From Promethearchaeia archaeon (GTDB taxonomy: Archaea; Asgardarchaeota; Lokiarchaeia; Sigyniarchaeales; SOKP01): 12,056 nt of DNA. The notes below the pieces were generated by a model that did not search any database, was not told where the DNA came from, and saw only the letters and a program-made list of their open reading frames with translations. Location: assembly GCA_029856155.1 (NCBI GenBank), contig JAHQWL010000003.1, positions 1-12,056 of the forward strand, in the 5' to 3' direction. Shown in pieces: positions 4,540-10,429 of the stretch (position 1 is the first letter of the stretch; each line of letters begins with the position of its first letter). Both the position numbers and the translations under genes were made by a program.

Positions 4540-5853
4540 ATGCCCGAAGATTACCAGATTGCTTTAAACAAATTAAAAAGAATTTTACCCTTTGTTAATT
4601 CAGTTGCATTAGTGGATGGAAGAGGCGAATTAGTTTATTCAACAGATAATTGGAATATAAAAGAAGATATAGTTGATCTAATATCTCTCTGGTCGTCTAT
4701 GAAACGTCAACCTATTATGATTTCTGGAAAAAAATATTTAATACGTACTTGTACAAGTGATAGATTTGTAGCAAGCTCACCTAAAGGAGAAGGCCATATT
4801 GTAGGTGCTAATGACGATGAAAGGACAATTATAACTCTTATTGAACCAGATGGGATTATTCCTTTTACTACTATGGAGATAACTAGAATTTTAGCTTCAT
4901 TAAAAGAAAAAGAACCTTACTTGGATGAGAGTATACAATTAGGAAAGAACATCAAATTAATGAAAGATGGATCCTCTCATAGTGAAAAAGTAAAGCAAAA
5001 TAAACTTGATAAAGATATATTGCCAAACCAAAAACAAAAAGAGCCAAAGCTAGATCTACCTTTCACAGCTCGCCTTATGGCTTATTATCGAGCTCAAGAG
5101 TCTAAACGTGATGATGCTCTTATAATAGATCCTTTCGCAGAGCGCCTTGCGGGTAATTTGGGTTCATACTTGAGTGATCATATACGTTTCTCTGAAATGG
5201 ATTATCCGCTCGTGCGTTCATATTACATTGAAAAAAATTTGTTAACGCCTTGGTGTAATAAACAAAAAGATTCACAAATAGTTCTTTTAGGAGCAGGATT
5301 AGACACACGTGCATACCGATTCAAACCCGAACATAAAAATAAACACACTCTCTTCGAGATCGATTTTCCAGAAGTGATTCAATATAAAAATGAAATTTTA
5401 AAAAATGAAAAACCTTTTTGTAATCTTGTGCGCTTATCTGCTGACCTTTCCAAACATAATTGGTTACCCTTTTTAATAAATAGCAAATTTTCTACAAAGA
5501 CCCCTACTTTTTGGGTATTAGAAGGCATTGCTTATTATATTGAAAAACAAGATTTTACCTCTTTACTCTTTAAAATAGCCGAGATAAGTACTAAACACAG
5601 TCAAATTTTCATTGATATCATGCAATTATCAAGATGGTACTCTTTTCCTTATACTTCAGATGGAATTGTAGGAGACCCCTTCTCAAAGCATTTTAAATGG
5701 GGTATTGATATTAACTCTGCTCAATCGCTTTTTGCTGAATTTGGTTGGAATGTGACCTGTTCTTTCGCTGATGATCATGATCAAGGTAGAAATGTAGGGC
5801 AGAAAGGGATGATTTTTGTTCATGGAGAGAGGGCTTCCACTATGTTTTTTTAA
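4540..5853 (+). CDS. Fusion of an N-terminal Asgard profilin-like domain (aa ~1-121) and a C-terminal SAM-dependent methyltransferase of the leucine carboxyl methyltransferase (LCM)/TIGR00027 type (aa ~173-437)
   Basis: MTase: TARLMAYYRAQES, DPFAERLAG, QIVLLGAGLDTRAYR, FEIDFP, ADL and EGIAYY. N-terminus: VALVDGRGELVYSTDNWNI, ISGKKYLI and GEGHIVGA resemble Loki profilins. The domains are joined by a Lys/Gln/Pro-rich linker. Confidence 0.85.
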   Translation: MPEDYQIALNKLKRILPFVNSVALVDGRGELVYSTDNWNIKEDIVDLISLWSSMKRQPIMISGKKYLIRTCTSDRFVASSPKGEGHIVGANDDERTIITLIEPDGIIPFTTMEITRILASLKEKEPYLDESIQLGKNIKLMKDGSSHSEKVKQNKLDKDILPNQKQKEPKLDLPFTARLMAYYRAQESKRDDALIIDPFAERLAGNLGSYLSDHIRFSEMDYPLVRSYYIEKNLLTPWCNKQKDSQIVLLGAGLDTRAYRFKPEHKNKHTLFEIDFPEVIQYKNEILKNEKPFCNLVRLSADLSKHNWLPFLINSKFSTKTPTFWVLEGIAYYIEKQDFTSLLFKIAEISTKHSQIFIDIMQLSRWYSFPYTSDGIVGDPFSKHFKWGIDINSAQSLFAEFGWNVTCSFADDHDQGRNVGQKGMIFVHGERASTMFF

Positions 5854-9566: not shown

Positions 9567-9630
9567 TTTTCGATCCTAGAGACAAATTCTATAATTAGCT
9601 CATAATTTCAATAAAATATCAACTATATGT

Positions 9631-9638
9631 TTTTATAT
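9631..9638 (+). promoter_or_regulatory. TATA box candidate for the J-domain gene (possibly leaderless mRNA)
   Basis: TTTTATAT ends about 26 nt before the ATG at 9665, which fits archaeal spacing. Confidence 0.4.
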
Positions 9639-9664
9639 CCGAATTTTATTCTATTAAGTAGAAG

Positions 9665-10012
9665 ATGAATGAGAATAAGGATTATTATGAGCTTTTAGGG
9701 ATTGAAAAAGATTCTACAGAAGAGGAAATTAAATTAGCATATAGAAAATTAGCTAAAAAATATCATCCTGATGTTAATAAAACAGATCCTAAAGCTAAAG
9801 AGAAATTTATTGAAATAAAGGAAGCTTATGAAACCTTAATTGATCCTATAAAACGTGGAATCTATGATCAGCCTATATATAATCCTCAGAACCCAGATTG
9901 GAGTGATCTGTTTAGAACTTCTGATTTTAGAACTTTTATAGAAATAATGAGACGAATATATAGAAATTCAAATCCGTCTTATAAACCTCCTCCTGAAGGA
10001 ATGTATGTATAA
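9665..10012 (+). CDS. Small J-domain (DnaJ class III) protein
   Basis: DYYELLGI...[20 protein letters not shown]...[12 protein letters not shown] with an intact HPD motif. No G/F-rich region, Zn finger or CTD; a ~45 aa tail ends in PPPEGMYV. Confidence 0.92.
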
Positions 10013-10159: not shown

Positions 10160-10429
10160 ATGGTTGATTCCTCAAAATCCAACTCAGCTAATATGATAAA
10201 ATCTGAATATAATAAGAGATTAAAGGAATTAGAATCCAAATTAGCATTAAAACATAAAGAATTGAAACAAATTGAAAATGCATTTATTCATGACACAAAG
10301 AAGATTGATCATTCAAATGTTGGTAAATTAAAATCTAAAAAAGCACAAGTTAATTCAGAAATATTACTGTTAATAAAACAGATTAAAAAAGTCAGTAAGG
10401 AAAAGCTTAGAAAACTTAAAAAATTATAA
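10160..10429 (+). CDS. Hypothetical Lys-rich coiled-coil protein, 89 aa
   Basis: ATG ORF with heptad-like Leu/Ile periodicity in two long helices. No family recognised. Confidence 0.65.
   Translation: MVDSSKSNSANMIKSEYNKRLKELESKLALKHKELKQIENAFIHDTKKIDHSNVGKLKSKKAQVNSEILLLIKQIKKVSKEKLRKLKKL

Follow-up and report, generated by a model that had tools for sequence, protein, structure and literature searches.

A shortened DnaJ, here called mini-J, is maintained in one family of Loki-type Asgard archaea and has a docking-type C-terminal tail that may bring Hsp70 to the 20S proteasome. We suggest this role because the last nine residues of the protein are more strongly conserved than its J-domain and resemble the tag by which regulators dock on the 20S particle. 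J-domains recruit Hsp70-ATP and trigger its hydrolysis, and C-terminal tails of the hydrophobic-Tyr-x form (HbYX) dock between the α subunits of the 20S proteasome, as in PAN, Cdc48/VAT, PbaB and eukaryotic PI31. Docking of the mini-J tail on the 20S proteasome, with Hsp70 brought there, is the best explanation of the data that follow, and we hold it tentatively, as a reading with nearly an even chance of being right.

The window analyzed is a whole contig (C2) of 12 kb from an Asgard genome of 4.1 Mb (97% complete, ~29% G+C). Translation of 9665-10012 (+) gives a protein with the C-terminus KPPPEGMYV, followed by a TAA stop. The features that matter here are:

4540-5853, + strand: profilin-LCM fusion gene, 4 kb upstream of mini-J
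9630-9639, + strand: A/T-rich TTTTTATATC, ~30 nt 5′ of the ATG, read from the sequence
9665-10012, + strand: mini-J gene (P0001), 115 aa, stop included, the only long frame there
9680-9868, + strand: J-domain, residues 6-68 (Pfam PF00226; the genome search agrees on the coordinates)
9764-9772, + strand: HPD tripeptide His34-Pro35-Asp36, the Hsp70 ATPase-stimulating loop, read from the sequence
9869-9967, + strand: residues 69-101, linker then helix (~82-100), homologue of the G/F start (hhalign, BLASTP, AF2)
9983-10009, + strand: C-terminal tail K107-PPPEGMY-V115 (conservation and codon variation; coil in AF2)
10001-10009, + strand: HbYX, Met113-Tyr114-Val115, within the tail and directly before the TAA

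The A/T-rich element may be an archaeal TATA box, in which case the mini-J mRNA would be leaderless or near-leaderless; a scan of the locus for bacterial-type promoters and terminators was uninformative. Just 3′ of the gene is a Lys-rich ORF of 89 aa (10160-10429, +), probably a coiled-coil, for which the sole match was a sub-threshold one to Pfam KIF21A_4th (21.9 bits versus a cut-off of 33.1 bits).

The Pfam DnaJ profile PF00226 matched mini-J with 92.8 bits (E=1.4e-26; curated cut-off 27.8 bits), covering profile positions 1-63 of 63, and the solved J-domains nearest to mini-J matched at E about 1e-21. The HPD tripeptide is kept in 125/125 members of the mini-J family. Together with the translation, the Pfam match confirms what a first-pass annotation had read from the letters of the DNA, i.e., an intact HPD J-domain followed by a short HbYX-like tail. 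In the AF2 model (mean pLDDT 72.6), the J fold is made up of helices 7-11, 19-33, 44-59 and 61-68 at pLDDT 80-91; beyond it come a disordered linker (69-81), a helix (82-100, pLDDT 55-65) and then a coil tail. The linker region, residues 69-101, includes the DIF-like D-W-S-D-L-F. DnaJ was the sole domain in the Pfam search of mini-J, with no FP domain, zinc finger or client-binding domain, and no oligomerisation domain is evident, the 82-100 helix being of low confidence.

Comparison with the longer J-proteins points to the origin of the protein. When mini-J was aligned with the class-A DnaJ P0132 (376 aa) by hhalign, 99 columns were aligned at 54% identity, covering the J-domain and extending as far as the beginning of the G/F region (VDVSDIF..DELFKSIFGGF), with homology ending at ~residue 101. 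The closest J-domain in its own genome is that of the class-A DnaJ at G000:C69:9092-10222 (BLASTP, 57% over 82 residues, with one stretch of 13 identical residues, reaching residue 83). Judged from these alignments, mini-J consists of a new tail of ~14 residues attached to the first ~100 residues of its lineage's class-A DnaJ and, because Pfam shows a J-domain only and the class-A homology stops at ~residue 101, its architecture is that of a class-C J-protein. With the class-A DnaJs (P0132 and the C69 copy) mini-J shares its J-domain and the beginning of G/F, whereas the remainder of G/F, the CXXCXGXG zinc finger and both C-terminal client-binding domains are absent from it, and it is 115 aa long compared to their ~376 aa. 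What mini-J has in their place is the KPPPEGMYx tail, a module for which no longer bearer was found. It also differs in being outside any dnaK operon: the genome has three dnaK genes, each with a full-length dnaJ beside it, and mini-J is the fourth, solitary J gene.

Of the 3430 ORFs in the same genome that are ≥100 aa long, 49 (1.4%) have an ending of the Hb-Tyr-x form, and a single such ending is by itself no more than chance, which was the caution attached to the 3-residue motif in the first-pass annotation. The caution stands for one gene and fails for the family, since conservation of the tail across relatives is far beyond chance: the penultimate Tyr, whose conservation at the exact C-terminus had been proposed as the check, occupies that position (–2) in 125/125 homologues. 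A whole-protein search found 395 mini-J homologues of 63-202 aa, mostly 115-117 aa, and calls of 128 aa and 143 aa have a C-terminus identical to that of the shorter ones. The exact C-terminus K-P-P-P-[ED]-[GS]-[ML]-Y-[ITVS] is present in all 120 homologues among the matches listed (395 found). The most distant members, which came from an exhaustive profile search of 1.84 billion representatives, end ..RPPPEGMYI, ..SEPPFGLYI and ..YPPPPDSIYI. Among the 125 family members, the hydrophobic position before the Tyr is Met in 122, Leu in 2 and Ile in 1, and the last residue is free (Ile 98, Thr 15, Val 10, Ser 2); further upstream, Pro at –6 is found in 125/125 and Glu or Asp at –5 in 123/125. The tail is the least variable segment of mini-J, with a mean column entropy of 0.33 bits compared to 0.69 for the J-domain and 1.4-2.1 for the residues between them.

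The codons point the same way. Selection appears to act on the mini-J protein, because the Pro, Glu, Gly and Tyr codons of the tail vary synonymously under constant residues and because pN/pS, ~0.27 over the gene as a whole, falls to 0.19 in the J-domain and 0.14 in the tail and rises to 0.42 in the middle, in a sample in which pS is near saturation (about 0.70) and in which most loci, for pN/pS and codon counts alike, were fetched by a pattern that requires the tail, so that the tail values are biased. Unbiased support for the conservation of the tail comes from the whole-protein searches, i.e., the 395 homologues and the profile search of 1.84 billion representatives. One candidate tail-less member, P0127, was rejected: its sequence is cut by a contig end. 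In another case, P0143 (192 aa, a metagenomic representative), the last 79 residues of mini-J, from the middle of the J-domain onward, are joined to an unrelated N-terminal segment, and this protein is probably an assembly or gene-calling chimera. As read from these sequences, the mini-J tail is a genuine motif of HbYX form, conserved at the C-terminus.

The distribution of the gene is narrow. With a profile of the C-terminal 48 residues, mini-J was found in at least 69 of the 400 phylum genomes, every one of them in the GTDB family of the window, i.e., in at least 69/135 genomes of that family (at least 68/134 others plus the genome of the window); outside the family it was found in 0/265 genomes of the phylum among the candidates scored, which were 17 of ~50 per genome, so that absences are not proven. 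By genus, it is present in at least 34/42 genomes of one (g4) and in at least 25/53 of its own (g1). Mini-J is an accessory gene, patchy even within a genus, because among the candidates scored it is missing from several genomes of its own genus that are 99-100% complete. The first-pass annotation had looked to Asgard genomes for homologous short J-proteins; Asgard is correct, and the scope is narrower, being restricted to about half the genomes of the window's own GTDB family. Since the matches are confined to this family, the NCBI labels Thor, Odin and Hod carried by some MAGs with mini-J are probably loose naming. A DNA search of 301 genomes with the pattern PPP-[DE]-x-x-[ILMF]-Y-x-stop gave essentially one match per genome, mini-J itself, and agreed with the distribution seen by the profile. 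In one genome of the same genus, two copies of the C-terminal module are 2.5 kb apart (G195:C47:20675-20803 and 23163-23297); the second, which ends ..PPPEGIYI, has a TAA within it and is thus a decayed duplicate. In the gene neighbourhoods of three relatives, nothing is conserved except an EamA transporter in close kin, and no conserved proteasome or Hsp70 neighbours were seen.

The HbYX motif is defined by a hydrophobic residue at P3, Tyr at P2, any residue at P1 and a terminal carboxylate paired with Lys66 of the α subunit, and the same work names the gate and pocket residues of 20S α and stresses multivalency for 20S partners (PMC8907193). In the 20S α subunit of this genome (G000:C26:160070-160786) and in 21 further Asgard α subunits, Y8, D9, P17, G19, E25, Y26 and K66 are invariant. 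The β subunits that go with this α are encoded on C52 and C82. PAN of the same genome ends ..RLYS, two Cdc48 copies end ..DLYR and ..ELYR, and the PAC2/PbaB-like protein ends ..KSLYI; some mini-J members end ..DSLYI or ..DSMYI.

Several other genes of these systems deserve mention. A second PAN paralogue (G000:C71:55707-56918, –) ends ..SDIFL and one of three Cdc48 paralogues (G000:C1:39562-41805, –) ends ..RLFV, both being Hb-Phe-x and not Hb-Tyr-x. A further gene of the PF00227 proteasome family (G000:C1:9788-10374, +) is in two pieces with a TAA between them, which may be a broken second paralogue of α or β or reflect a faulty assembly; two α paralogues are usual among relatives in the family, and this genome has only one intact at E≤1e-40. 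The genome has three Hsp70 genes, on C26, C69 and C71. One of them (G000:C69:15501-17522, –, 673 aa) ends ..KKVVDVDWDED, which is acidic and faintly reminiscent of the eukaryotic EEVD tail, and the other two end ..VVDAEYD and ..LQDKMM.

Relative to proteins with known docking tails, mini-J shows both likeness and difference. PAN, Cdc48/VAT and PbaB (PAC2 family) have, like mini-J, a C-terminal hydrophobic-Tyr-x with free carboxylate on a flexible tail; unlike mini-J, they form rings or oligomers and are multivalent, have no J-domain and have tails without the PPP-E-G extension, and their binding to 20S is shown experimentally whereas the likeness of mini-J is one of sequence. Unrelated proteins of actinobacteria, Bpa/PafE and Mpa, have a Gly-x-Tyr-x motif that docks in the α pocket, and G-M-Y-I in the mini-J family has the same form; Bpa is, by contrast, a dodecameric ring with no chaperone domain. 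Eukaryotes couple Hsp70 to the proteasome through DNAJB2/HSJ1 (by its UIMs), BAG1 (by its UBL domain) and CHIP. The logic proposed for mini-J is the same, i.e., an Hsp70 co-chaperone with a proteasome-addressing module, but these proteins address the 19S cap or ubiquitin and not the 20S α pockets, and homology to mini-J is limited to the J-domain. PI31/Fub1 ends, as mini-J does, in a disordered Pro-rich region with HbYX at its C-terminus; it differs in having an FP dimerisation domain, which mini-J is without, and the mini-J tail is of ~14 residues with three consecutive Pro. In PI31 the disordered C-terminus is Pro/Gly-rich with HbYX at residues 269-271, in line with the general likeness to PI31 drawn by the first-pass annotation, and its long Pro/Gly-rich segment enters the catalytic chamber, inhibition by PI31 being independent of HbYX (PMC10319324).

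The mechanism that we favor is as follows. Mini-J is a stand-alone J co-chaperone of the class-C type, which arose when the class-A DnaJ of the lineage lost everything after the start of its G/F region and gained a 14-residue tail. Its J-domain would engage one or more of the three Hsp70s and trigger ATP hydrolysis, as expected from what is established for J-domains. The disordered tail K-P-P-P-[ED]-[GS]-[MLI]-Y-x-COOH would then, in the step that we infer, dock on the 20S α ring, with the Tyr in contact with the Gly19/Glu25 region and the free carboxylate paired with α Lys66. Once docked, mini-J would bring Hsp70 with its unfolded client to the gate of the proteasome, ready for hand-off to degradation; intermediates in the assembly of the α ring are an alternative site at which the tail might dock. 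In a complex prediction of three copies of the 20S α of this genome with residues 70-115 of mini-J, run without controls, ipSAE was 0.30/0.46/0.06 (median 0.30, against a mark of 0.32), a result that carries no weight on either side.

Several observations argue for docking on the 20S proteasome. Both ends of the proposed bridge appear to be in place: on the chaperone side, the J-domain is intact, to judge from the HPD in 125/125 members, and the genome encodes three Hsp70s; on the proteasome side, the receptor is present with an α pocket that looks competent. The tail itself matches the HbYX definition at the level of sequence, with a fixed hydrophobic residue, a fixed Tyr, a free last residue, a free carboxylate and disorder, and it is modelled as coil after a helix of low confidence, as docking tails are. 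In addition, the established docking families of the same genome have similar endings. There is also a precedent by analogy: Bpa was found through a C-terminal GQYL common to Mpa and was then shown to bind 20S (PMC8223512).

Set against docking is the extent of the conservation, which spans six residues past HbYX (KPPPEG), beyond what HbYX needs, and could mark another reader. By analogy with known partners, a single HbYX tail on a small protein with no evident oligomerisation domain should bind weakly. The gene is accessory and lineage-restricted although the 20S proteasome is universal, it has no conserved proteasome or Hsp70 neighbourhood, and the Hb-Tyr-x ending is unspecific (1.4% of ORFs). 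The proposal of the first-pass annotation, i.e., an adaptor between Hsp70 and 20S, thus gains from the invariance of the Tyr, from the conserved and selected gene, from the HbYX pattern and from the α pocket residues, and loses from its restriction to one GTDB family.

In a bolder version of docking, Hsp70 would act as an ATP-driven delivery cap: several mini-J tails in the α pockets would open the gate and fire the Hsp70 ATPase at the pore, so that clients enter without PAN or Cdc48. We think this unlikely. If true, it would be a third, non-AAA+ route into the archaeal proteasome and an archaeal precedent for eukaryotic Hsp70-proteasome triage.

The nine-residue conservation, the lack of an evident way to present several tails and the lineage restriction leave room for a lineage-specific reader of the whole motif. 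According to this alternative, which we consider possible though doubtful, some other partner reads all of K-PPP-E-G-M-Y-x-COOH as a short linear motif at the C-terminus, and Hsp70 is recruited elsewhere; the reader could be a profilin-, SH3-, WW- or GYF-like domain, a PUB/PUL-like domain or a lineage-specific protein. Nine residues are kept and not three, including the Pro at –6 (125/125) and the acidic residue at –5 (123/125), and restriction to one GTDB family fits a lineage-specific partner, whereas the 20S proteasome is common to all archaea as far as is known. Eukaryote-like adaptor domains abound in Asgard genomes, and the window also encodes the profilin-domain fusion. Nevertheless, no candidate reader was found. 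The genome gave no match to a PUB domain, which reads the Hb-Tyr-x tails of p97 (control genomes gave no match either), the profilin-LCM fusion and mini-J do not co-occur, no other protein family bears the tail, and PPPEGMY matches none of the PPxY, PxxP and PPG consensus forms. PDZ class II ligands need a hydrophobic last residue, and the Thr or Ser at the end of 17/125 members speaks against this class. Searched against PDB sequences, the profile of the C-terminal 48 residues gave chance-level matches only (E of 0.07 or worse), and look-alikes of residues 69-115 in the ESM Atlas all scored <0.9.

The tail might instead act inside the chaperone system, either as a pseudo-substrate of the Hsp70 SBD or in autoinhibition, folding with the G/F-derived helix onto the J-domain. 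The G/F region regulates the Hsp70 cycle in DnaJ, and in class-B J-proteins a G/F helix masks the Hsp70 site. In mini-J, the residues ahead of the tail are homologous to the G/F region of DnaJ, DIF-like motif included, and genomic context links nothing outside the chaperone system to the gene. However, the exact C-terminal position, the invariant penultimate Tyr and the free last residue are foreign to Hsp70 substrates and to known G/F autoinhibition. DnaK motifs are Leu-rich and basic-flanked, whereas the tail is Pro-rich and acidic, and AF2 shows no confident docking of the tail on the J-domain. We therefore regard a role within the chaperone system as improbable.

A further idea comes from the fusion gene upstream. 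Its LCM part belongs to the leucine carboxyl methyltransferase family, of which LCMT1 acts on the PP2A tail ..TPDYFL, and by analogy the fusion would methylate the carboxylate of the mini-J tail while its profilin domain reads PPP. The two genes are a few kb apart in two close relatives as well (G276 C16, at 240376 and 243753; G177 C37, at 21947 and 24155), and methylation could in principle serve as a switch, by blocking the salt bridge to Lys66. However, other genes lie upstream in a more distant relative, ~60 genomes have mini-J without the fusion, and the full-length fusion is found in 14/135 family genomes, with mini-J in at least 8/14 of these versus at least 69/135 overall; on this lack of association the idea was rejected as highly improbable. 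Most genomes of the family have stand-alone profilin-domain proteins of ~205 aa, and some have LCM-only genes of ~270-300 aa.

That mini-J is merely what remains of a truncated dnaJ and has no function, the outcome that the first-pass annotation had named as telling against its proposal, is hardly credible: homology to class-A DnaJ is limited to its first ~100 residues and half of the genomes in the family dispense with the gene, but 395 homologues are of constant length, pN/pS is 0.27 with pS about 0.70, the newly gained tail is the most conserved part and the apparent tail-less member is a contig-end cut, so that the gene is dnaJ-derived and yet a conserved, selected family.

In the full-text literature we found no description of HbYX with a J-domain, of HbYX with Asgard archaea or of these Asgard J-domain and Hsp70 proteins, and public databases name the mini-J homologues only DnaJ or J-domain-containing. 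Mini-J combines known kinds, to judge from its architecture a class-C J-protein and an HbYX-type tail, and does not form a new category. The known partners of the archaeal 20S proteasome are AAA+ unfoldases (PAN, Cdc48) and PbaB-type factors. According to one paper, the factors that regulate the archaeal proteasome are largely unknown (PMC9540759). If the mini-J tail does dock on the 20S proteasome, a bacterial-type Hsp70 system acquired by archaea would be physically coupled to the archaeal/eukaryotic degradation machine, this coupling would be found in the lineage closest to eukaryotes, and three or four recombinant proteins would suffice to test the triage between folding and degradation. 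Should the partner be other than the proteasome, few C-terminal linear motifs are as strongly conserved as this tail, which would then mark an interaction directing Hsp70 to some specific site.
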